IMG/VR virus record: IMGVR_UViG_2651869749_000010
Coordinates: 1 to 37,428 of that record
Strand: one strand, 5' to 3'
DNA length: 37,428 nucleotides
From: a virus
Taxonomy: Duplodnaviria > Heunggongvirae > Uroviricota > Caudoviricetes
The notes under the pieces are model-generated. The model had not been told where the DNA came from. It did no database searches and was given only the letters and a program-made list of their open reading frames with translations. Every line of letters starts with the position of its first letter. The first letter of the stretch is position 1. Shown here one piece after another: positions 5,028 to 20,530 of the stretch. The position numbers and the translations under genes are program-made.

Positions 5028-7850
5028 ATGACGGCAGAGTACATCAGGGACTGGCAACAACCGCGCCACGCAGTGGGGCGTGAAGGAACGGGGATCCCCG
5101 CTCCTGAATCCGCGCTTTCCTCCTGGCTGGATGCCTACCGGGCAGAGAACGAGCGCCGCCAGGAAATGGCTGATGCGGCGTTCTCCGCCACGCCGCTGGG
5201 CAACCTGATTAATAAAAGCCTAGACGCACAGGAAAAACAGGACAAAACAATCACACTGGCAGGAGACGCCAGAAAACAGGCACGCGGCGCGGTAGATGAG
5301 GCCATGGCCTCACTGCGCCTGCTGCCGTCCTATCTGCGCGATCCGCTTATTCGCCACCTCTCCTTCCTGCGCAAAAAACAGGAAGCCGATCGTCAGCAAG
5401 GAAAAAACGCCAGGCAGGCAGAACGCTATGCGCGTGGGACCCTGCGCAAAATATTCGAACGTCTGGAGCGCACCGATCACCGCTGGCTGACATCGGGTTA
5501 TCGCTCCCTTGCCGGACGTGAACGCCTGGACGATTTGATTTACCTGCCGCAACTCAACAAACACCAGATACAGACGCTGGCCACCATGACGGCGGCGATG
5601 TTCAGCAGCACCTTCGAAAAACTCTGCGATGGTTTTGGCGCGACTGATGGCGAGCTGACCATGGATGTAACGCTGAAGGCGTATCAGATGCTGGCCCGCA
5701 TGGCGTTACACTTACACGCCATGCCTCCGCATTATGACGCACTGACAACAGACAAAGACCGGAGGCACGAACCGGACACAGAACTGCTGCCGGGCGCAAT
5801 CCTTCGCCTGACCTGTGCGGAATGGTGGAAACGCAAACTGTGGCTGTTACGTTGCGAGTGGAGAGAAGAACAACTCCGCGCCGCCTGTCTAGTTTCCAGA
5901 AAAACATCGCCCTATCTGAGCCAGGACGCGTTAAGCGAGTTTCGCGCACAGCGCGAGAAAACACGCGATTTCCTGAAAAGTTTCATGCTGGAAAATGAAG
6001 ACGGGTTCACGATTGATCTCGAGACGGTGTATTACGCGGGAGTAAGTAACCCGGTTCACCGTAAGGCAGAAATGATGGCCACCATGAAGGGGCTGGAACT
6101 TCTGGCCGAAGCCCGTGGCGACAAAGCGGTGTTTCTGACTGTCACCTGCCCGTCAAAATACCACGCCACAACGGAGAACGGTCATCCGAATCCCAAATGG
6201 AACGGGGCCACAATGCGCGACTCCAGCGATTACCTGGTTAACACGTTTTTTGCGGCGGTCCGCAAAAAACTGAACCGCGACGACCTGCGCTGGTATGGCA
6301 TCCGCACGGTGGAGCCTCATCATGACGGCACCGTGCACTGGCATATGATGGTCTTTGCACATCCGGAAGAAATCGACACCATTGTGTCCCATACCCGCGA
6401 TATTGCCATTCAGGAAGACCGCCACGAGCTGGGCAATGATATTACTCCGCGCTTTAAGGTGGAGTATGTCGACGGCTCAAAAGGCACGCCAACCAGCTAC
6501 ATCGCCACCTACATCGGAAAGAACCTGGACAGCCGCGCCGTGGATGGCATCGACCCGAAAACGGACAAGCCACGCGTGGACCACGAAACCGGAAAATCAA
6601 TGGCCGAGAGCGTGGAACGCGCCATCGGCTGGGCGCGTCTTCACCGCGTCCGCCAGTTCCAGTTCTTTGGTATCCCCTCCCGTCAGGTATGGCGTGAACT
6701 CCGCCGCCTTGCCAGTCAGATGGCCCGCAACCCGGAAGGTCCACAACGTCTGGAAAATGACGCAATGGATGCGGTACTCGCTGCCGCTGATGCCGGGTGT
6801 TTTGCCACCTACATTGAGAAACAGGGTGGCGTACTTGTTCCACGCAAAGACTACCTGATTCGCACCGCCTACGACCTCGCAGAAGAGCTGAACGATTACG
6901 GCGAGCAAAGCGTACAGATTTACGGGATCTGGTCGCCACAAATCGGGGAATCTTCCCGCGTGTGCACGCACCCGGATAACTGGAAGCTGGTAAGACGTAA
7001 ACCGGAAGCGGAAGACAGCGCCCGCGAAAATGGTTTTGACCTTCAGGGCGGCCCTGCCGCCCCTTGGACTCGTGGCAATAACTGTCCCCGTGTACAGGAA
7101 ACGGACAACAACGGGACAGAACAGCCGGAAGAACGGCCAGCACCGTGGCCGCAGCTCCCTGACGGCGTTGAAGTGAACGAATGGATGCGCTCACTGAAAC
7201 GGCACGAACGCCGGGCGCTGATGCGTTCGCTTCGTGACAAACAGGCAAAAAACAGCAGTGATGAAATGCAGAGCTGGACACAGAGCCGCAAACAGCAGCG
7301 GCCTTTGCCTGATAACCACGAATTACTCGCTAAAGAATGGCGGGAGTCTGCTGAATCTCTCGGCCTGCATATCGGTGAACAGCAGATGCAGCACCTGTTA
7401 CGGGGCGGCAGTCTGTACGTTGACGGCAGCATCATTGCACCGCAGGGATTTGAAATTGTACGCAAACCGGATACCCGACCGGACAGCCGGATCACGCAGC
7501 TCTGGCAGCGCCTGAGCCGTAACCACGGCGTAAGCAGCACGGAGATCCGCCATAACCCGGTCGCCAGCTATCTGGAACAGCTGGGGGCATCAGACCCCGA
7601 AGCCGCCGCACGCCTGGCATCCACACTTCAGCAAGACCAGAACACCATGAAAACACCCGTTACCGTGCTTTCTGACATGCTGCGCGCCATCCGCGACGCA
7701 GAGCACGCACAGAGAATCAGTGAAACCACTGAACGCGCCCGCCGCAAAGCAGACCTGCTGCGAGGTGGCCTGACCAGTGGAAACAAAAAACAGACAGAAA
7801 CGGGATTCACAAATCCCGTAAATGAGCAAAAAACGCGCCGCGATATATGA
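5028..7850 (+). CDS. A: Replication initiation protein (P2 gpA-like rolling-circle endonuclease)
   Basis: 940-aa ORF with HUH-type motif (VHWHMMVF) and paired tyrosines (SYIATYIGKN) characteristic of P2 A-family nickases; position after early genes. Confidence 0.85.
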   Translation: MTAEYIRDWQQPRHAVGREGTGIPAPESALSSWLDAYRAENERRQEMADAAFSATPLGNLINKSLDAQEKQDKTITLAGDARKQARGAVDEAMASLRLLPSYLRDPLIRHLSFLRKKQEADRQQGKNARQAERYARGTLRKIFERLERTDHRWLTSGYRSLAGRERLDDLIYLPQLNKHQIQTLATMTAAMFSSTFEKLCDGFGATDGELTMDVTLKAYQMLARMALHLHAMPPHYDALTTDKDRRHEPDTELLPGAILRLTCAEWWKRKLWLLRCEWREEQLRAACLVSRKTSPYLSQDALSEFRAQREKTRDFLKSFMLENEDGFTIDLETVYYAGVSNPVHRKAEMMATMKGLELLAEARGDKAVFLTVTCPSKYHATTENGHPNPKWNGATMRDSSDYLVNTFFAAVRKKLNRDDLRWYGIRTVEPHHDGTVHWHMMVFAHPEEIDTIVSHTRDIAIQEDRHELGNDITPRFKVEYVDGSKGTPTSYIATYIGKNLDSRAVDGIDPKTDKPRVDHETGKSMAESVERAIGWARLHRVRQFQFFGIPSRQVWRELRRLASQMARNPEGPQRLENDAMDAVLAAADAGCFATYIEKQGGVLVPRKDYLIRTAYDLAEELNDYGEQSVQIYGIWSPQIGESSRVCTHPDNWKLVRRKPEAEDSARENGFDLQGGPAAPWTRGNNCPRVQETDNNGTEQPEERPAPWPQLPDGVEVNEWMRSLKRHERRALMRSLRDKQAKNSSDEMQSWTQSRKQQRPLPDNHELLAKEWRESAESLGLHIGEQQMQHLLRGGSLYVDGSIIAPQGFEIVRKPDTRPDSRITQLWQRLSRNHGVSSTEIRHNPVASYLEQLGASDPEAAARLASTLQQDQNTMKTPVTVLSDMLRAIRDAEHAQRISETTERARRKADLLRGGLTSGNKKQTETGFTNPVNEQKTRRDI
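7800..7819. promoter_or_regulatory. 20-bp palindrome ACGGGATT-N4-AATCCCGT, copy 1 (inside the 3' end of gene A)
   Basis: Read directly: acgggattcacaaatcccgt; second near-identical copy 73 bp downstream. Confidence 0.4.
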
Positions 7851-7926: not shown

Positions 7927-8328
7927 ATGAAAATTTGTATCGATGACGGCTCCACCAACATCAAGCTGGCATGGACTGAGAACGGCGAACGCCGCAACGC
8001 CATCAGCCCGAACAGCTTCAAGTCGGAATGGTCTGCGCCGTTCGGTGGCACGCAGCCCGCGAACTACATGCTTGATGGCGTGCGCTATGGTTTTGATCCG
8101 GTCAGCGATCGCTTTGTCCAGACAACTGACACGCAATACCAGTACAGCGATGTGAATGTCATTGCCATTCATCACGCGCTGGTCAAATCAGGCATCACGC
8201 CACAGGAGGTGGATGTGGTTGTCACCCTGCCACTGAGCGAGTATTTCGACACAAACGCACAGCCGGACATAGCCAACATCAACCGCAAAAAAAGCCCAGG
8301 ATTCCCGGGGCGGTTCAGAGGAGAGTGA
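7927..8328 (+). pseudogene. Truncated ParM/StbA-like actin-type segregation ATPase (N-terminal ~120 residues only)
   Basis: MKICIDDGSTNIKLAW...YQYSDVNVIAIHHALVKSGI...VVVTLPLSEYFDTNAQPDIANINRKK closely parallels the recalled N-terminus of plasmid R1 ParM; full-length ParM is ~320 aa, here the frame stops after 133 codons and unrelated sequence follows. Confidence 0.65.
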
Positions 8329-8330
8329 GA

Positions 8331-8822
8331 ATGCAAATTTCACCGGTTACTCTTCGTGTTGCGAAGGCGTTTATATCCAGACATCACCGACACAATAAAC
8401 CCCCGGTGGGGCATAAATTCAGCATTGGTCTGAGAAATGATGCCGGAGAATTGATAGGTGTGGCGACAGCCGGTAGACCTGTTGCACGACATTTGGACGA
8501 TGGATTAACGCTTGAAGTAAATCGCACATGTACCACAGGAGAACGCAACGCTAACAGCGCACTTTATGGTGCTGTCTGGCGGGCAGCAAAGGCTATGGGT
8601 TATCAACGTTGTATTACGTACACCCAGGCAGATGAATCAGGAGCATCTCTCCGCGCAGCTGGTTTTGTTCGTGTGAAAGAGCTTCCTCCAAGAAAAAGCT
8701 GGGCGGAATCAAGCGTCGCCCTGCGGAGTAAACGCGATCCGGTCGGAAACGGTGGTGTTCCTCGTGTGCTCTGGGAAATCAGGAGAATGAGTACCACTGG
8801 CATTCGCATCAAAGGAGAGTGA
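8331..8822 (+). CDS. Hypothetical basic protein (163 aa), first gene of accessory operon; possible degenerate GNAT-like fold
   Basis: ATG 8331 with AGGAGAGTGA RBS/junction; segment ALYGAVWRAAKAMGYQRCITYTQADESGASLRAAGF is loosely reminiscent of acetyltransferase-fold proteins but lacks a clear G-x-G loop. Confidence 0.55.
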   Translation: MQISPVTLRVAKAFISRHHRHNKPPVGHKFSIGLRNDAGELIGVATAGRPVARHLDDGLTLEVNRTCTTGERNANSALYGAVWRAAKAMGYQRCITYTQADESGASLRAAGFVRVKELPPRKSWAESSVALRSKRDPVGNGGVPRVLWEIRRMSTTGIRIKGE

Positions 8823-9091
8823 TATGGCAACTTTGACAAAAAAAGAACAAGCATGGTTGAGCGAATTACAGGACGTTCTTGATCGCTGCCCATCACCGAA
8901 AAAAATTGGTTTTTACACCATTGGCGATAAAAGCATTTACCTGTATGACCTGCGCCGCATGGATGAAATCATGGAGGCTCTTGATAATCGTTCGTCAATG
9001 GATTGGTGTGTTGCTGTCCATGATATGAATGCAGGGTTTGATGAAAAGATTTTGTTCCCCTCATCAGTTGAAAGCACAGCAGGATAAGGAC
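8811..9091 (+). repeat. 281-bp direct repeat, copy 1
   Basis: Identity by eye with 9497..9777; starts at AAAGGAGAGTGAT, ends at TAAGGAC. Confidence 0.85.
8824..9087 (+). CDS. Hypothetical small protein (87 aa), copy 1
   Basis: ATG 1 nt after upstream stop; identical second copy at 9510..9773. Confidence 0.6.
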   Translation: MATLTKKEQAWLSELQDVLDRCPSPKKIGFYTIGDKSIYLYDLRRMDEIMEALDNRSSMDWCVAVHDMNAGFDEKILFPSSVESTAG

Positions 9092-9097
9092 TAACAC

Positions 9098-9508
9098 ATG
9101 ACCACTATTACCAAAGAACGTATTGAATTGTTCATTAAAAATCCGCTTGAAAACGGGCTTACTCGTGACGAACAAATGGAACTGGCACGAATTGCACTGG
9201 CATCGCTGGAAGCAGAGGCAGTTATGTTCTGTATATCAGGACAAAATGTAGATTCAGAAGAACATGTATCAACCAGCAAAGCGGTTGTTGATGCCTGGGT
9301 TGAAGAATGGAATCAGGTTGACGGAAGTCCTGGCGAACCACTGTACAAAACTATGCCACTCTACTATCACGCTGCCTTGCCAGCGCCGGTAGTGCCGGAT
9401 GAAATGTATTGGCAGGATGCGCCAGTTGAAGGCAGCAGCAAAGCGGCTGCATACGCTACAGGCTGGAACGCCTGCCGCGCCGCTATGCTTCATGGGAAAG
9501 GAGAGTGA
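9098..9508 (+). CDS. Hypothetical protein (136 aa) bracketed by the duplicated 87-aa gene
   Basis: 136-aa ORF; stop followed 1 nt later by ATG of duplicate gene; no recognised domain. Confidence 0.55.
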   Translation: MTTITKERIELFIKNPLENGLTRDEQMELARIALASLEAEAVMFCISGQNVDSEEHVSTSKAVVDAWVEEWNQVDGSPGEPLYKTMPLYYHAALPAPVVPDEMYWQDAPVEGSSKAAAYATGWNACRAAMLHGKGE

Positions 9509-9777
9509 TATGGCAACTTTGACAAAAAAAGAACAAGCATGGTTGAGCGAATTACAGGACGTTCTTGATCGCTGCCCATCACCGAAAAAAATTGGTTTTT
9601 ACACCATTGGCGATAAAAGCATTTACCTGTATGACCTGCGCCGCATGGATGAAATCATGGAGGCTCTTGATAATCGTTCGTCAATGGATTGGTGTGTTGC
9701 TGTCCATGATATGAATGCAGGGTTTGATGAAAAGATTTTGTTCCCCTCATCAGTTGAAAGCACAGCAGGATAAGGAC
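9497..9777 (+). repeat. 281-bp direct repeat, copy 2
   Basis: Identity by eye with 8811..9091. Confidence 0.85.
9510..9773 (+). CDS. Hypothetical small protein (87 aa), copy 2 (identical to 8824..9087)
   Basis: ORF-track frame 9399..9773 contains the identical 87-aa sequence from ATG 9510; the N-terminal extension is the overlap with the upstream gene. Confidence 0.6.
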   Translation: MATLTKKEQAWLSELQDVLDRCPSPKKIGFYTIGDKSIYLYDLRRMDEIMEALDNRSSMDWCVAVHDMNAGFDEKILFPSSVESTAG

Positions 9778-9808
9778 CCAGCAAATATACACAACCTATA
9801 AAACACTA

Positions 9809-9833
9809 AAGCGCCTCAGGGGCGCTTTTTGTT
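9809..9833 (+). terminator. Rho-independent terminator closing the accessory operon
   Basis: GCGCC-tcag-GGGCGC hairpin followed by TTTTTGTTT. Confidence 0.6.
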
Positions 9834-9860
9834 TGCACAAAAGTGCACAAATTTGCACAA
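9834..9860 (+). repeat. Three TGCACAA direct repeats at exact 10-bp spacing
   Basis: tgcacaa at 9834, 9844, 9854 read directly. Confidence 0.6.
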
Positions 9861-10359
9861 TTTTTTTGAACGACTTTTTACCCTTCCGGCCCGCATGGCG
9901 GCTGGATCCGTCAAGGATCCGTGCGTGCACAAAAAAACGCGCTTTTTCTGCGCGCAGGTGACGGGGGAACAGCCCGCGTTTCAGGGGGTAAATAGCATTC
10001 CCTGAACGATGTCGCAGAGACACAACAGAATGGCCATATTTCTCACGCTGAGCATGAAAAAGGCGTGAGGGCTTTTGATTTGATGGGGTGAAAGGTAAGG
10101 CCGTCAAAATCGCACTGAGGCAGCGAGAACATACAGTCAACGCGGTGGAATTGCGTAAGAGTCTGACCGTCGATGGTGGCGATAAACTGGAAGGCGTCGT
10201 GAAATTATCTGATTGATACAGGAGCTGGAGAGCCGGGGCATAAATTTTTTATGCCCCGGCGAAGCAGCAGACAAGCGAAGCGCGTCAGCGATACGGCACC
10301 TTGCCGACCATACTTCATAAGTGCAAAATACGAGCAAAGAAATCAATGGAGGCTGTCTT

Positions 10360-10884
10360 ATGGTCATTAATTACAAGCAGTTAAGAGAAAAACGGGAGCA
10401 GGTAAAGGAGAGCTTTCGCCGCAATGAAGATCTGACCCCGCTTGTACGCCTTGCCCAGGGCATTGTTGATGCTTATGAAATCTCGCTGGAGCTGCCATCA
10501 CAGACCTGGACAGATAGCGACGGTAATCGCCAGCATTACGTTTCATGCGGACTGGAAGCAGCCGAAGGATTTCGCAGAATGCCTTTATCCCAGATCCCTG
10601 CCGCTACCCCCAAAGCATGGGGCAGCAATGATGAGCGAAAACTGACTTTTAGTATTGAAACGGTGGTTGACGACACACCTGGCGAAGTCGCGTTCGTACA
10701 CACTCCTGTTTCGATCGCAATGTATAACGATGAAATACAGGTTCGCGTTAATAATAATATCGTGCCACTTAAAGAAGGTAATTCACCCTACACCACCGTT
10801 TGTGAAGCCATTCAATATTACGTTCTCTCTGAAATTGATAATCTCAAGCCTGACGGCACCCAGAAAATGGTTCAACTCTGGTAA
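10360..10884 (+). CDS. Hypothetical protein convergent with the portal gene
   Basis: Frame 10321..10884; ATG at 10360; no recognised domain; overlaps portal 3' end by 41 bp on the opposite strand. Confidence 0.45.
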   Translation: MVINYKQLREKREQVKESFRRNEDLTPLVRLAQGIVDAYEISLELPSQTWTDSDGNRQHYVSCGLEAAEGFRRMPLSQIPAATPKAWGSNDERKLTFSIETVVDDTPGEVAFVHTPVSIAMYNDEIQVRVNNNIVPLKEGNSPYTTVCEAIQYYVLSEIDNLKPDGTQKMVQLW

Positions 10885-11944
10885 AAAGGACAGCCCCATC
10901 ACGGGGCTGTTTTTCATCAAGAAGAGCATAAGAGTTAAAACGGATCACCTCTTCGCCAAGCCAGTCATTGATGTGCTTCATAGCCTCCATGACGGGCATC
11001 AGCTCGTTAATTGCGTAAACCCGCGCTGCCTTCTCCACATCGCCAAACGCACTTTTTTCGCCCGGCATCGCCCCCATCAGTTGCGGCGGAACGCGGTGCG
11101 CAGCCAGCACATCATCACGGGATGCCGCCTTAACATTCATGAATTCATCTTTTGCGGTGATCTGCTGGAACGGCAAAATTTGCCCCCCCTCTTTGCCCCC
11201 GTTGGGCGCATGAATGAGCACGTTTTTAAACGCACCACCACCACGTGCCCCCTGTAGCGTTTCTTTCAGGGAGTCCATGCTTTCGCGGTTTACCTGCGCT
11301 GCACCGATGTAGATGATGCACCCGGCGTGGGATCCGTTGTCGTAGTACAGTTTTCTGAACATGTCCGCCGAATGAGAAAGGCTGGCCGAGAGTAATGCGC
11401 CAAGATATTCCGGCATGCCGTAGATTTCCTGGTTAATATCCGGATTCATCAGGTGGCACACTTTGCCAGGACGAAACTGAAACGCGTCCTTGCCATCCTG
11501 CACATACCACCATGATTCAAGATCGCTTCCGCGTCGCATGTATTTCGCCAGGGCGTGCCGTAATTTAAGCGGTTCGCCGAGCATATTGCTTCGAAGCTCA
11601 AGGAATGCGTTACCGAACACAAACCAGTCCAGCGCCAGCGCCGAGAAATCCTGCCGGGAAAGCAGCGGGTGCGGGATGTAGCAACCGAGTAATACATTGC
11701 GCTTAAAGTAAAGCGCAGACTGATGCCAGGACGTTTGCCGGGCAGCTCTTGCCAGACCGTACCAGTCCACCGGGGTTTCATACCACCGCCCGTTATCAGC
11801 ACAGTACATATTGTCCAGCAGGTCATGCCCGGTCAGGCGATAAGGACCATCAAATGTGAATGCACTGAGCGATGATTCTTTCCTGAGCGCATCAGCGAGA
11901 TCAATGCGTGAACTCATGCGCACTTTTTTATTTTTTCTGCTCAT
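10844..11944 (-). CDS. Q: Portal protein (P2 gpQ-like)
   Basis: 366-aa ORF directly downstream of and overlapping the large terminase gene; size and position as in P2. Confidence 0.8.
   Translation of the reverse strand: MSRKNKKVRMSSRIDLADALRKESSLSAFTFDGPYRLTGHDLLDNMYCADNGRWYETPVDWYGLARAARQTSWHQSALYFKRNVLLGCYIPHPLLSRQDFSALALDWFVFGNAFLELRSNMLGEPLKLRHALAKYMRRGSDLESWWYVQDGKDAFQFRPGKVCHLMNPDINQEIYGMPEYLGALLSASLSHSADMFRKLYYDNGSHAGCIIYIGAAQVNRESMDSLKETLQGARGGGAFKNVLIHAPNGGKEGGQILPFQQITAKDEFMNVKAASRDDVLAAHRVPPQLMGAMPGEKSAFGDVEKAARVYAINELMPVMEAMKHINDWLGEEVIRFNSYALLDEKQPRDGAVLFTRVEPFSGCRQA
10889..10915. terminator. Bidirectional hairpin terminator between convergent genes (lies inside the portal 3' coding end)
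   Basis: CAGCCCC-atca-GGGGCTG stem with T-run on both strands (tttttcatc on plus; cctttttac on minus). Confidence 0.45.
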
Positions 11945-13695
11945 CAGAACTCCATAACTGTGAAACGCTCGTTTTCTCCTTCGCCGCCAATTGGTTCGTT
12001 AATGACAGCAAGCATGGTTGCCCACGCAAGGTCGCCGTGGCTGATCCCCCTCGCGCGGTCCGTTTCGTAAGTGATAAAGCCGCCCGGTGTTTTCACCTTA
12101 CGCACGGCGTTAAAGGCTGCGACCAGCTCGCGTTCGGCGCGATCGTATTCCCACCGCCCGGCACGCATTATTTGCAGCATTTTCAGTACCAGCGACCGTT
12201 TTGATGACAGCGTGAAGGTGTACGGAATAGCAGCAGGGAAAAACCGTTTCACTATCTGATAAACAGCCTCCCCGTTCCCGCCCGTCACATCAATGCCGAT
12301 GTGTTCCACGTTGTAGCGACACGTGAACTCTTCAATGACTCTGGCCTGTTCTTCAAACTCCAGCCCCTGAACGCGTCGCGTCTCCACCGTTCGAAAACGG
12401 CCACCAGGAACAGACGGAGGAACCACCACGGACACAGCGCCGCTGTCGCCGTTGCCACTGCTGCCGTTTGCGTCATACCCAATCCATACCGGACGATTCC
12501 CCATCGGGCGGGGAGCAAAAGGTTTCCAGTCTTTCCAGTCGTCGTATCCGTCAACACCACAGCCAATCAGGATATTCAGGTTAAATGCCGATTCCCCTTC
12601 GCGGACAAACTCACACATATAGAGATTGAGGAACTCGTCTTCGGTGTTTTCATCACGAATTTCATCAATATCGGTGTGTTTCCAGCCGTGATTAACCACA
12701 TCTTCCAGCGTGACAATTTGCCGCCACGTCCGGTCAGGGCAGATAAGCCCGTTATGCAGCGTTTTCCAGTCCACAGAAAAACGCTGGCGTTTATGCGTGG
12801 CCTTTTTCTCGTTCCAGCGGTCGCCGTTCCAGTAGGCGTATGCCTCGTGCGTTTCGGTGGATGGCGTGGAGAAGTAGGTGCGCCGCAGTCCGCTGAGGGT
12901 TGCCATAGCGCCAGCCACCTTGCGCAGTTCAGCAAAGCGACTGACCCAGAAAAATTCATCAAAATAAAAATTGCCCGTATAGGACTGCGCCGACGCAGCA
13001 GAAGTGCCGAGAAAATGCAGCTCTGCGCCGTTGGAGAGGATGATTTTATCGCCCCCTTTCAGCTCCACATCAACTTCAGCCGCGGCCTTCTGAATAATGC
13101 TTTTAAACTGGAACGCCTGACGACGCGACGCAGACAAAAAAATCTGGTTACGCTGGTAAGGTTGCGCCACATCGTCACGCAGCGCCATCAGCAGTGCTTC
13201 CTGTGCAAAATACCAGGTCGCGCCAATCTGTCGGGATTTCAGGATCATCCTGTTACGTATCCCGGCTTCCCTGCAAAGGGTCAGGGAGTCAAACCAGCCC
13301 CGCTGATGCCACTCCAGCCTGCTGATGATTTTTTCCCGCAGTGCGACAATCTGTTCCGGCGTGAAATGATTTTTGAGTTTTTTCGCCCGGCCTTTCTTTC
13401 CTGTGGCCGTCGCATCCGGCTGGCCATCATGCATTTTTTTAAGCTGCCGGGTCAGCAGGTCTATTTCCTTAAAGTCACCGCCTGTTTTATTCTGTTTTTC
13501 AGTAAGCTGGATGAGGCGCGCATCGATGGACTGCGTGACACGCTGCACGGGTGGCGTTTCATCCCACTGGTCGCGTTTTTTCCACGCATAAATCGTGTTC
13601 GGGTTTATTCCCATCAGACGTGATATTTCTGCGGGCGGATAACCCTGCCAGTAAAGTTGCCGCGCACGCTGGCGCACAAAAGCGTCCTGAATCAT
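11944..13695 (-). CDS. P: Terminase large (ATPase) subunit (P2 gpP-like)
   Basis: 583-aa ORF, size and position as P2 gpP; divergent from scaffold gene. Confidence 0.85.
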   Translation of the reverse strand: MIQDAFVRQRARQLYWQGYPPAEISRLMGINPNTIYAWKKRDQWDETPPVQRVTQSIDARLIQLTEKQNKTGGDFKEIDLLTRQLKKMHDGQPDATATGKKGRAKKLKNHFTPEQIVALREKIISRLEWHQRGWFDSLTLCREAGIRNRMILKSRQIGATWYFAQEALLMALRDDVAQPYQRNQIFLSASRRQAFQFKSIIQKAAAEVDVELKGGDKIILSNGAELHFLGTSAASAQSYTGNFYFDEFFWVSRFAELRKVAGAMATLSGLRRTYFSTPSTETHEAYAYWNGDRWNEKKATHKRQRFSVDWKTLHNGLICPDRTWRQIVTLEDVVNHGWKHTDIDEIRDENTEDEFLNLYMCEFVREGESAFNLNILIGCGVDGYDDWKDWKPFAPRPMGNRPVWIGYDANGSSGNGDSGAVSVVVPPSVPGGRFRTVETRRVQGLEFEEQARVIEEFTCRYNVEHIGIDVTGGNGEAVYQIVKRFFPAAIPYTFTLSSKRSLVLKMLQIMRAGRWEYDRAERELVAAFNAVRKVKTPGGFITYETDRARGISHGDLAWATMLAVINEPIGGEGENERFTVMEF

Positions 13696-18511: not shown

Positions 18512-18653
18512 CCCACCCACATGGGGAAACCTCGGAATATGGGGCGACCGCCTTCTGGATGCACTGGAAACCTGTAACGCGGATAAACGGGCCATTGCTG
18601 AACTGGATAAGAGAATAGCCGAACTGACACACCAGACGGGAGTAACACAATGA
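18342..18653 (+). CDS. o-spanin lipoprotein (LysC/Rz1-like), embedded in and overlapping the i-spanin gene
   Basis: Lipobox LLTGC after a short hydrophobic stretch, proline-rich mature part; alternative start ATG 18372. Confidence 0.6.
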   Translation: MNSYATILQKMNAPTLCLTLVLLTGCAGTQNAPGPAPSVRLIPQTLTMPVTPPPFPDPPTWGNLGIWGDRLLDALETCNADKRAIAELDKRIAELTHQTGVTQ

Positions 18654-20530
18654 CCAGTAAGAACTTTGCACTGATTACAGCCATGACACAGGCTGAACTG
18701 ACTCAAAAGGTGAATGAACATCTTGCGAAAGGGTGGCATCTTCAGGGGGAGACGCGGGTTGCCTACGAACCCGGCACCCCGTGGTATCTAATGCAGGCAA
18801 TGGTGGACGATGGCACTACAGACATCTCACCTGATTCCCCCCAGCACGGCAGCGTGCCGGAGTGGTATTACGTGGTGGTACTTGCTGGTCAATCCAATGC
18901 CATGTCATATGGTGATGGAATGCCGCTGCCGGATTCTTACGATGCGCCCCACCCACGCATTAAGCAACTGGCCCGTCGCAACACAGTGACTCCCGGTGGT
19001 AAAGCATGCGCATTTAACGACATCATTCCGGCAGACCACTGCCTGCATGATGTTCAGGATATGAGCGCACTGAATCATCCGAAGGCAGACCTGAGCAAAG
19101 GGCAGTACGGCTGTGTCGGCCAGGGCTTACATATTGCCAAAAAACTGCTCCCGTATATCCCGAATAACGCGGGGATCCTGCTGGTACCATGCTGTCGTGG
19201 TGGTTCGGCATTCACTCAGGGCGCGGAGGGAACATTCAGTACGACCACGGGGGCCAGCCAGGATTCGGCGCGCTGGGGTGTGGGTAAACCGTTATATCAG
19301 GACCTGATTGCGCGCACCAAAGCTGCATTACAGAAGAACCCGAAAAATGTGTTGCTGGCGGTGTGCTGGATGCAGGGCGAATTTGACATGAGCGCTGCCA
19401 CCTACGCACAGCAACCGGACCTGTTCACGGCCATGCTGAAGCAGTTCCGTACTGACCTTTCCGGATTTAACGCGCAGTGCCATGGCGGCAGTGCTGCAGT
19501 TGTACCGTGGATTTGTGGCGACACGACGTATTACTGGAAAAACACATACGGCACACAGTATGACTCCGTCTACGGCGCGTACAAAAACAGGGAGAGCGAC
19601 AACGTTTTCTTTGTGCCGTTCATGACCGACGGTAACGGCAACAACACGCCCACCAACTTACCGGCAGAAGACCCGGATATTGCTGATGCAGGTTATTACG
19701 GCGCGCAATCCCGTAGTAATGGTAATTGGGTATCGTCAAATCGTCCGACACATTTCAGTTCATGGGCGCGCAGGGGCATTATTTCGGATCGCCTGGCAAC
19801 CGCTATTCTGAACGCAGTTGGTCGAACCAGCGCCTTCATCAGCGGTACCGCACCGGAGATTAAACCCTCGCCCGGCGGCGACACTCCATCGGGGCCGTCT
19901 GATGGTGACACATCCGTTCGTACAGTCTCCCTGCTGCCGACAGCCGGAGAGGCTGCTGCGCAGGGCTGGACCATCACCGGCGGCAGTGTTGCGCTGGAAG
20001 ATGGTGTGTTTAAGGTTACCAAGCAGAGCAATAAAACCTGGTCCCTGATGCATCCGGTGGATGACGCAGTCTCCCTGCTGACACGGGGTGGCAGACTGAG
20101 CTGTAAGTTTCGACTGTCAGGCGCACTGACCAACAACCAGTTCGGTCTGGGAATTTATCTGTATACCGATGTAGCGTTACCTGACGTCGTGGCGATGACC
20201 GGGACTGGTAACCCGTTCCTGATGTCGTTCTTCACCCAGACCACAGACGGCAAACTGAATCTGATGCATCACAAGAAAGCCGGAAACACAAAGTTGGGCG
20301 AGTTCGGGAATTACAGTAACGACTGGCAGACGCTGGAGCTGGTGTTCACCGCCGGCAGTGCCACGGTTACTCCGAAACTGAATGGAGTGGCTGGCCCGGC
20401 ATTCCAGGTCATAAAAGACAGTCTGACACTGGGGCTGAATGCGCTGACGTTAACTGATATCACTAAAAATGCCGCGTACGGCGTCGATATCGGCAGCCTG
20501 GTGCTGGAAATCAATAATCCCGCAGCATAA
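18650..20530 (+). CDS. SGNH/SASA-family sialate O-acetylesterase-like protein (NanS-p-like) with N-terminal DUF1737-like domain
   Basis: 626-aa ORF; N-terminus KNFALITAMTQAELTQKVNEHLAKGWHLQGE; esterase signature VVVLAGQSNAMSYGDG (GQSN block, nt ~18886-18903); inserted between lysis genes and tail completion gene. Confidence 0.65.
   Translation: MTSKNFALITAMTQAELTQKVNEHLAKGWHLQGETRVAYEPGTPWYLMQAMVDDGTTDISPDSPQHGSVPEWYYVVVLAGQSNAMSYGDGMPLPDSYDAPHPRIKQLARRNTVTPGGKACAFNDIIPADHCLHDVQDMSALNHPKADLSKGQYGCVGQGLHIAKKLLPYIPNNAGILLVPCCRGGSAFTQGAEGTFSTTTGASQDSARWGVGKPLYQDLIARTKAALQKNPKNVLLAVCWMQGEFDMSAATYAQQPDLFTAMLKQFRTDLSGFNAQCHGGSAAVVPWICGDTTYYWKNTYGTQYDSVYGAYKNRESDNVFFVPFMTDGNGNNTPTNLPAEDPDIADAGYYGAQSRSNGNWVSSNRPTHFSSWARRGIISDRLATAILNAVGRTSAFISGTAPEIKPSPGGDTPSGPSDGDTSVRTVSLLPTAGEAAAQGWTITGGSVALEDGVFKVTKQSNKTWSLMHPVDDAVSLLTRGGRLSCKFRLSGALTNNQFGLGIYLYTDVALPDVVAMTGTGNPFLMSFFTQTTDGKLNLMHHKKAGNTKLGEFGNYSNDWQTLELVFTAGSATVTPKLNGVAGPAFQVIKDSLTLGLNALTLTDITKNAAYGVDIGSLVLEINNPAA

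Follow-up and report, generated by a model that had tools for sequence, protein, structure and literature searches.

Organization of the locus

The stretch of viral DNA analysed here, called the window in the following, comprises the 37,428 nucleotides of the IMG/VR record IMGVR_UViG_2651869749_000010 and holds a P88-like (Xuanwuvirus, P2-family) prophage. Our subject is an accessory gene that faces the portal gene of this prophage and seems to run into it. In the six-frame list of open reading frames (ORFs), the accessory ORF occupies 10360-10884 on the plus strand and encodes 174 amino acids from its ATG; it is situated between gpA (5028-7850) and the portal ORF, which in the window is read at 10844-11944 on the minus strand and encodes 366 amino acids. 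The large terminase gene (11944-13695) is next after the portal ORF. The two convergent ORFs share 41 bp (10844-10884), and a two-sided hairpin with the form of a terminator (10890-10910) falls within the final 22 codons of the portal ORF. With regard to these coordinates we agree with the first-pass annotation of the window, which had described a 174-amino-acid plus-strand ORF ending 41 bp inside the portal ORF and a two-sided hairpin terminator inside the portal 3' end. It had also stated that in P2 the portal gene lies near cos without any gene between them, as is indeed found in the P2 record (NC_001895; cosL 1-19, tQ 160-181, Q 187-1221). Two possibilities had been deduced from this comparison, either a cargo gene that overlaps its convergent neighbour in an unusual way or an incorrect call of the portal C-terminus or ORF. 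Our comparison with related prophages supports another view: the gene arrangement is very probably ordinary, and the overlap stems from a one-base deletion that lengthened the portal frame in one lineage.

The aberrant portal C-terminus

The portal ORF matches the Pfam family Phage_portal PF04860 (E 3e-17) and phrog_68, the P2 portal (E 8e-152). The phrog_68 profile of 344 positions aligns solely to residues 1-345 of the 366, which marks the conserved body of this gpQ homologue at 10910-11944 on the minus strand. The window portal is 99% identical to the portals of JJ1886 and P88 and 45% identical to P2 gpQ. An alignment of portal C-termini with P2 gpQ and others, as the first-pass annotation had suggested, confirmed that the end of the window portal is aberrant. 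In the six aligned portals the conserved core closes at ...VIRFNxYALL(D/E)xx, and the natural tails comprise only 0-4 residues (TAP, PTS, KTGL, D or none). Portals of the P2 gpQ type accordingly end 0-4 residues past the core motif at a length of 344-351 amino acids; with its 366 amino acids and a tail of 21 residues the window portal falls outside this range, and its tail was found in no other aligned portal.

The tail starts at a homopolymer (10910-10914) that consists of T5 in the window and T6 in the relatives, corresponding to A5 and A6 on the portal strand. T6 was found in all relatives compared, including vB_EcoM-569R5, PhiR44_2, JJ1886, an O111:H8 strain, B1172 and a Salmonella genome. 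The closest phage records are vB_EcoM-569R5 and PhiR44_2, which are 99.1-99.6% identical to the window and are annotated with a 1047-bp portal gene ending 14 bp beyond the same 525-bp ORF; public annotations overall place a 1047-bp portal gene 14-15 bp from the accessory ORF. In the T6 allele, the portal strand ends with GAA AAA ACA GCC CCG TGA, and the protein has 348 amino acids with the C-terminus ...LLDEKTAP. The two genes are then separated by a 14-bp gap without any overlap, and the hairpin holds just the last four portal codons and the stop. This normal TGA (10899-10901, minus strand) is part of the hairpin loop, and in the window it is not in frame. The T5 frame bypasses it, and the tail TAP* is replaced by 21 unrelated residues until a stop is reached at 10844. 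The frameshifted tail (10844-10909, minus strand) hence consists of 21 aberrant codons (QPRDGAVLFTRVEPFSGCRQA) plus the stop and covers the 3' end of the accessory gene in antisense. In other words, the window portal overlaps the accessory gene because the T5 frame misses the TGA in the loop.

Each of the two possibilities raised by the first-pass annotation captured part of this situation. The gene is conserved and under purifying selection (see below), as would be expected for a true cargo gene, but the overlap is not a property of the gene itself. Likewise, the suspicion about the portal C-terminus was justified, but the cause is a 1-nt deletion in a T6 run and not a mis-call. The findings have little import for biology at large, and the lesson lies rather in annotation: here, a convergent overlap that runs through a terminator was the signature of a single-base frameshift, and the comparison with close relatives resolved the case at once. 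Moreover, the T5 lineage represents a natural test of whether the portal tolerates a net C-terminal extension of 18 residues.

A further peculiarity of the portal is found at residue 257 (about 11174-11176), which is Gly in the window and Val or Ile in all five aligned portals including P2 gpQ (GKEGGQIL in the window compared to GKEGVQIL). As the second change in the gene that also carries the frameshift, it could signal the onset of prophage decay.

Evidence for a probably real deletion

To evaluate the missing T, an 81-nt query spanning the T-run was searched against the complete E. coli genomes. Not a single exact T5 match was obtained among the 393 complete genomes that carry this junction, and all of the sampled rows (40 of the 393) span 82-83 nt compared to the 81-nt query. 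The closest complete genome, fS10a, is 99.58% identical over 14.7 kb, and the T deletion is the sole indel in the near-identical part of this alignment; four further single-base gaps are all situated in the diverged last ~100 bases. The identical 366-amino-acid portal was detected on 6 contigs of the public collection. Two of these loci were read directly. The sequence GCA_001266215.1 differs from the window by one single-nucleotide polymorphism (SNP) over 7.1 kb, the Logan assembly SRR19671054 is identical to the window over 5.2 kb, and both carry T5. T6 was read in six other loci. Two other genomes with the same cargo arrangement differ from the window by just 2 SNPs in 6.5 kb and carry T6. 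Taken together, T5 is probably a recent and real 1-nt deletion that has been inherited in one prophage lineage.

It must be mentioned that a homopolymer right after a GC-rich hairpin is a classic context for errors. In combination with the fact that the window has no exact counterpart among the 393 complete E. coli genomes sharing this junction, this could suggest that the T was lost during sequencing or assembly, and that the true genome has T6, a 348-amino-acid portal and no overlap. We regard such an error as quite unlikely, since the same 366-amino-acid portal occurs on 6 contigs from differing assemblers and samples and both loci that were read carry T5. Furthermore, the near-identical part of the 14.7-kb match contains no other indel, which argues against an origin of the window from a noisy, error-prone long-read assembly. 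The opposite view would be that the long portal is a functional variant or the product of programmed frameshifting and that the overlap is regulatory. The persistence of the T5 allele across several assemblies and the superficial resemblance of a shift at an A-run beside a hairpin to a recoding site could be cited in its favour. Nevertheless, we consider it scarcely credible: near-identical prophages carry T6, and the extra residues, which occur in no other aligned portal, simply correspond to the accessory gene read in antisense. Programmed frameshifting was rejected on reading the sequence, because the A-run contains no canonical X XXY YYZ heptamer in the portal frame, the hairpin begins without a spacer and the tail is not conserved.

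The accessory gene and its protein

The accessory protein is a cytoplasmic protein with a calculated mass of 19.8 kDa and a pI of 4.9, and it shows no hydrophobic or membrane segment. A homology search, as had been proposed in the first-pass annotation, was productive. The protein matches PHROG 5091 with E 1.4e-67, whereby residues 1-168 align to profile positions 1-164 of 164, i.e. to the full length of a family that carries no annotation. Relatives with 46-95% identity were found in E. coli, Salmonella and Trabulsiella by a word-indexed homology search. An exhaustive profile search returned 89 representatives of 50%-identity clusters, mostly of 155-185 amino acids and aligned from end to end, and each of the aligned relatives (63 of 63) matches PHROG 5091. 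Pairwise dN/dS, the ratio of nonsynonymous to synonymous substitution rates, amounts to 0.10-0.19 wherever dS is unsaturated, as expected from a protein-coding gene under purifying selection. Doubts about the conservation of the plus-strand ORF can therefore be set aside, and these data indicate that it is a genuine gene.

The acidic nature of the protein is a family trait, since all 63 aligned members are acidic with pI values between 4.3 and 6.5. The conserved positions are mostly occupied by Tyr, Leu, Trp, Phe and Val, to which one Ser, one Thr and a few Asp are added, and there is no conserved His, Cys, Lys, Arg or Glu in the aligned family. The 174-amino-acid protein found no match in Pfam or NCBIfam and none in PADLOC-DB 2.0 at E 0.1 or better. 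A Pfam scan of the 63 aligned relatives gave just three single, insignificant matches, and a profile search against the PDB sequences returned nothing below E 0.1. An AlphaFold2 model reached a predicted local distance difference test score (pLDDT) of 79-80. In these searches, no recognisable domain or fold was assigned to the protein.

The accessory ORF is labelled hypothetical protein in four phage records and in RefSeq. When two distant homologues were searched by tblastn against the phage collection, the same four P88-like records appeared together with one more hypothetical protein. A literature search with the protein accessions and the PHROG number, which covered main texts, yielded no paper naming or testing the protein, and the papers on P88, on phiSM and on P2-like diversity contain nothing on cos or on the accessory gene.

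Start, promoter and terminator

For the accessory gene, a GTG at 10321 would be an alternative start codon, from which an ORF of 187 amino acids could be read. However, the start is ATG 10360 rather than GTG 10321, because the homologues all begin with MVINY or MTVNY and the ATG is invariant in the alignment of homologous loci. Equally invariant is the GGAG of the Shine-Dalgarno sequence GGAGG (10348-10352, plus strand), which is placed 7 nt upstream of the ATG. Further upstream, a putative sigma-70 promoter (10301-10329, plus strand) is composed of the -35 element TTGCCG (10301-06), a 17-nt spacer and the -10 element CAAAAT (10324-29). The candidate agrees with the consensus at 8 of 12 positions; this is under the threshold of the consensus scan, in which the candidate was not listed. 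Upstream of the homologues in E. coli, Salmonella and Trabulsiella, the sequences have diverged except for TTGnnn-15-17 nt-(C/G)AAAAT, GGAG and the ATG, and the conserved -35/-10 pattern may well represent the phylogenetic footprint of a modest sigma-70 promoter.

At the other end of the gene, a bidirectional intrinsic terminator is predicted at 10883-10915 for both strands. It comprises A5 (10883-10887), the stem ACAGCCCC, the loop ATCAC, the stem GGGGCTGT and the T-run, with the hairpin proper at 10890-10910 and T5 at 10910-10914. The predicted folding energies are -19.7 kcal/mol (z -5.8) on the plus strand and -16.8 kcal/mol (z -4.6) on the minus strand; for either strand, none of the 200 shuffled sequences folded as well. 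The sequence after the stem reads UUUUU on the plus strand and CCUUUUU on the minus strand. The hairpin has therefore the form of a two-way terminator, which the late P-Q operon would share with the accessory gene. The T5 allele shortens the U-run of the plus strand by one base, and on the portal mRNA the hairpin would be crossed by translating ribosomes; both could weaken termination somewhat. An Rfam search of 9700-11100 gave nothing meaningful.

A comparable hairpin is known from P2, where tQ is listed as a putative rho-independent terminator of the P operon (NC_001895, 160-181). In both cases a GC-rich hairpin is positioned at the end of the portal gene, where it ends or would end the late P-Q transcript. 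In contrast to the window hairpin, tQ lies 6 nt past the stop, acts in one direction and has nothing convergent to it, whereas the hairpin of the window is two-sided, common to a convergent gene and overlaps the last portal codons.

The portal stop is found in the loop of the shared terminator in the Salmonella locus L024 (4540-4560) as well as in the E. coli lineage (window 10898-10902), while the hairpin sequences differ. This coincidence in both lineages may merely reflect tight packing.

An accessory unit next to the portal gene

The accessory gene is present in four phage records and absent from twelve related ones including P88. Among the complete E. coli genomes, the P88-type junction without the ORF was counted 744 times and the ORF-bearing junction 393 times, i.e. 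the gene is missing from about two thirds of the related E. coli prophages. The segment that is absent from the P88-type phages extends from about 10289 to about 10909 and encloses promoter, gene and terminator. In P88, the conserved non-coding block ending with ...GCGCGTCAG joins the portal 3' end directly, and the TCA of GCGCGTCAG serves as the portal stop. The portal finishes inside the terminator of the unit because the right edge of the segment falls within the last portal codons. Moreover, the GC content of the accessory gene (0.47-0.49) is lower than that of the portal gene (0.53-0.56).

Morons are autonomous promoter-gene-terminator units between core genes of temperate phages, and the concept reportedly goes back to comparisons of HK97 and HK022 by Juhala, Hendrix and colleagues. 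The combination of a promoter-like motif, a gene, a terminator, presence/absence variation and lower GC content would make the unit in the window a textbook moron. It shares with other morons the single gene, the promoter-like motif, the ribosome-binding site, the intrinsic terminator, the patchy presence, the lower GC content and the orientation against the late operon. It differs from them in that the terminator of the unit supplies the last codons and the stop of the portal gene, and its expression from the prophage is a prediction. The gene also already has entries in RefSeq, in PHROGs and in a published table on the P2 hotspot, and a moron with a shared terminator, as seen here, is a standard arrangement.

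On this basis, we propose that a self-contained moron resides between a probable cos element and the 3' end of Q, equipped with a weak promoter of the sigma-70 type, a strong ribosome-binding site, the PHROG 5091 gene and the hairpin. The accessory gene would be transcribed from its own promoter. Its transcript would end at the hairpin and would not continue in antisense into the late P-Q operon; in the other direction, the P-Q transcript would end there as well, short of the accessory gene and cos. The unit lies so tightly against Q that, in the normal frame, the 5' arm and the loop of the hairpin provide the last four portal codons and the TGA. In the lineage of the window, one T of the six-T run was lost, whereby the portal frame misses the TGA, gains 21 codons and creates the 41-bp overlap. 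As far as can be judged from the compared sequences, the overlap is a recent mutational accident and not a regulatory design.

Genomic setting

According to Rousset et al. 2022 (PMC9122126), anti-phage systems of P2-like prophages have a hotspot between gpA and gpQ. The accessory protein itself (WP_000236495) appears as 'hypothetical' in gpA-gpQ arrangements of supplementary file 6 of that study (PMC9122126). Regarding its location and its co-occurrence with DUF4760, DUF3800, Fic/Phd and Mom-like cargo, the accessory gene resembles the residents of this hotspot, such as old and tin in P2 (PMC9122126). It is, however, placed on the portal side of the probable cos, apart from the hypervariable cargo, is far more stable than this cargo and matches no known defence model. 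Salmonella P2-like prophages contain a 60%-identical homologue in the same slot, also convergent with the portal gene and with a differing hairpin between the two. The upstream cargo varies between the loci and includes an M78 peptidase-helix-turn-helix protein or YafO in Salmonella and DUF4760, DUF3800, Fic/Phd, Ead/Ea22-like or Mom-like proteins in E. coli. Compared to the Salmonella loci, the accessory protein shows 60-62% and the portal 73-75% identity. The accessory gene has thus diverged roughly in step with the portal gene, which argues for a stable resident rather than cargo with a fast turnover.

Other homologues occupy different places. In Trabulsiella, the homologue directly follows gpA and is succeeded by toxin-antitoxin cargo. 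The distant homologues are solitary genes: one lies between lysis cassette and terminase of a lambdoid prophage, and a second lambdoid prophage has one with the NinG/late-regulator region on one side and the holin on the other. Distant homologues were also found in a chromosomal islet and once within a baseplate cluster.

Upstream of the accessory gene, a conserved non-coding element of about 150 bp (9835-9985) contains three or four TGCACAA repeats and a GC-rich core. It is about 80% identical to Salmonella P2-like loci, while the surrounding DNA gave no alignment. In addition, the linear phage record P884B11 starts inside this element, at about window position 9879. The element probably represents the cos or packaging site of these phages. 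A search of the window for the P2 cohesive-end sequence GGCGAGGCGGGGAAAGCAC, with up to 3 mismatches allowed, found no copy, and when the P2 left end was compared with 9700-10400 by short-word BLAST, nothing but chance words was obtained. The cos of these phages is therefore of another type than that of P2. If the element at 9835-9985 is cos, the accessory gene would sit between cos and Q, where P2 has nothing.

Possible functions of the accessory protein

With regard to function we can only offer graded guesses. Our best one, which we hold tentatively and with low confidence, is that the accessory protein binds another protein in a phage-phage or phage-host conflict, serving either exclusion or counter-defence in the way of other single-gene cargo of the hotspot. 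We prefer such a stoichiometric binding role because of the acidic, non-enzymatic character of the protein, its mobility as a single gene among accessory slots and the hotspot context. It is possible, though doubtful, that PHROG 5091 as a whole constitutes a so far unrecognised group of single-protein, non-enzymatic conflict effectors for exclusion or counter-defence. These would bind a conserved protein of host or phage and would move among the accessory slots of temperate phages, whether P2-like, lambdoid or other; in the present subgroup of P2-like phages, the gene would have become a stable resident between cos and portal instead of fast-turnover cargo.

More specific proposals can be weighed against the same observations. 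The protein could act as an exclusion or abortive-infection factor comparable to Tin or Old, which would be expressed constitutively by the prophage from its own promoter. Such a role would fit to an autonomous unit that carries a promoter-like motif and a terminator and faces the late genes, and to the presence/absence polymorphism among related prophages. Nevertheless, it seems unlikely to us, because the protein has neither a match among the PADLOC-DB 2.0 models nor an enzymatic or membrane effector domain, and its divergence in step with the portal (60-62% compared to 73-75%) is unlike the turnover of the neighbouring cargo. Furthermore, some distant homologues belong to late operons, downstream of the late antiterminator region or in a baseplate cluster. 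We give about the same low weight to the idea that the protein is an inhibitor for counter-defence or host takeover, i.e. a small acidic protein that blocks a host protein or one of a rival phage. The conserved place could also be explained if the protein were a packaging or virion accessory tied to cos and portal. This appears very unlikely, since P88 and the Citrobacter phage phiSM are without the gene, yet both are described as active temperate phages (PMC6456863); the Trabulsiella homologue adjoins gpA, followed by toxin-antitoxin cargo, and other homologues are solitary chromosomal or lambdoid accessory genes. From a practical point of view, about 7% of the complete E. coli genomes carry this acidic, well-conserved protein at a phage-conflict locus, which makes it a candidate for a cheap defence/anti-defence screen.

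Further features of the window

A perfect palindrome is found at 10232-10260, with 13-bp arms (GCCGGGGCATAAA-TTT-TTTATGCCCCGGC), a folding energy of -24.2 kcal/mol and a z of about -7 to -8. It is conserved in P88-type phages, where it is located about 30 bp beyond the portal stop. Since no T-run exists on either side, it is not a canonical terminator.

Several observations concern the cargo between gpA and the probable cos element. A 281-bp direct repeat with one mismatch (8811-9091 and 9497-9777) duplicates an ORF of 87 amino acids (phrog_1714; 8824-9087 and 9512-9773). The copies flank an ORF of 136 amino acids (9098-9508, phrog_5117), and related prophages have one or two copies. The cargo gene at 8325-8822 belongs to the Mom-like/XF1762 family (NCBIfam NF045478, E 5e-61; phrog_1384, 'Mom-like DNA modification protein') and probably has a DNA-modification, anti-restriction function. 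Downstream of gpA, the ParM/StbA partition gene (7927-8328) is cut to 133 amino acids compared to 319 in relatives, and the Plasmid_stab_B gene is missing; the remainder of ParM/StbA and Plasmid_stab_B appear to have been replaced by the Mom-like cargo. Finally, in the late region, a 1.9-kb DUF6645 gene is present at about 18650-20530 between the lysC lysis genes and the tail genes, according to the annotation of the closest genome (L021, 29468-31348), and would be a large accessory insertion there.

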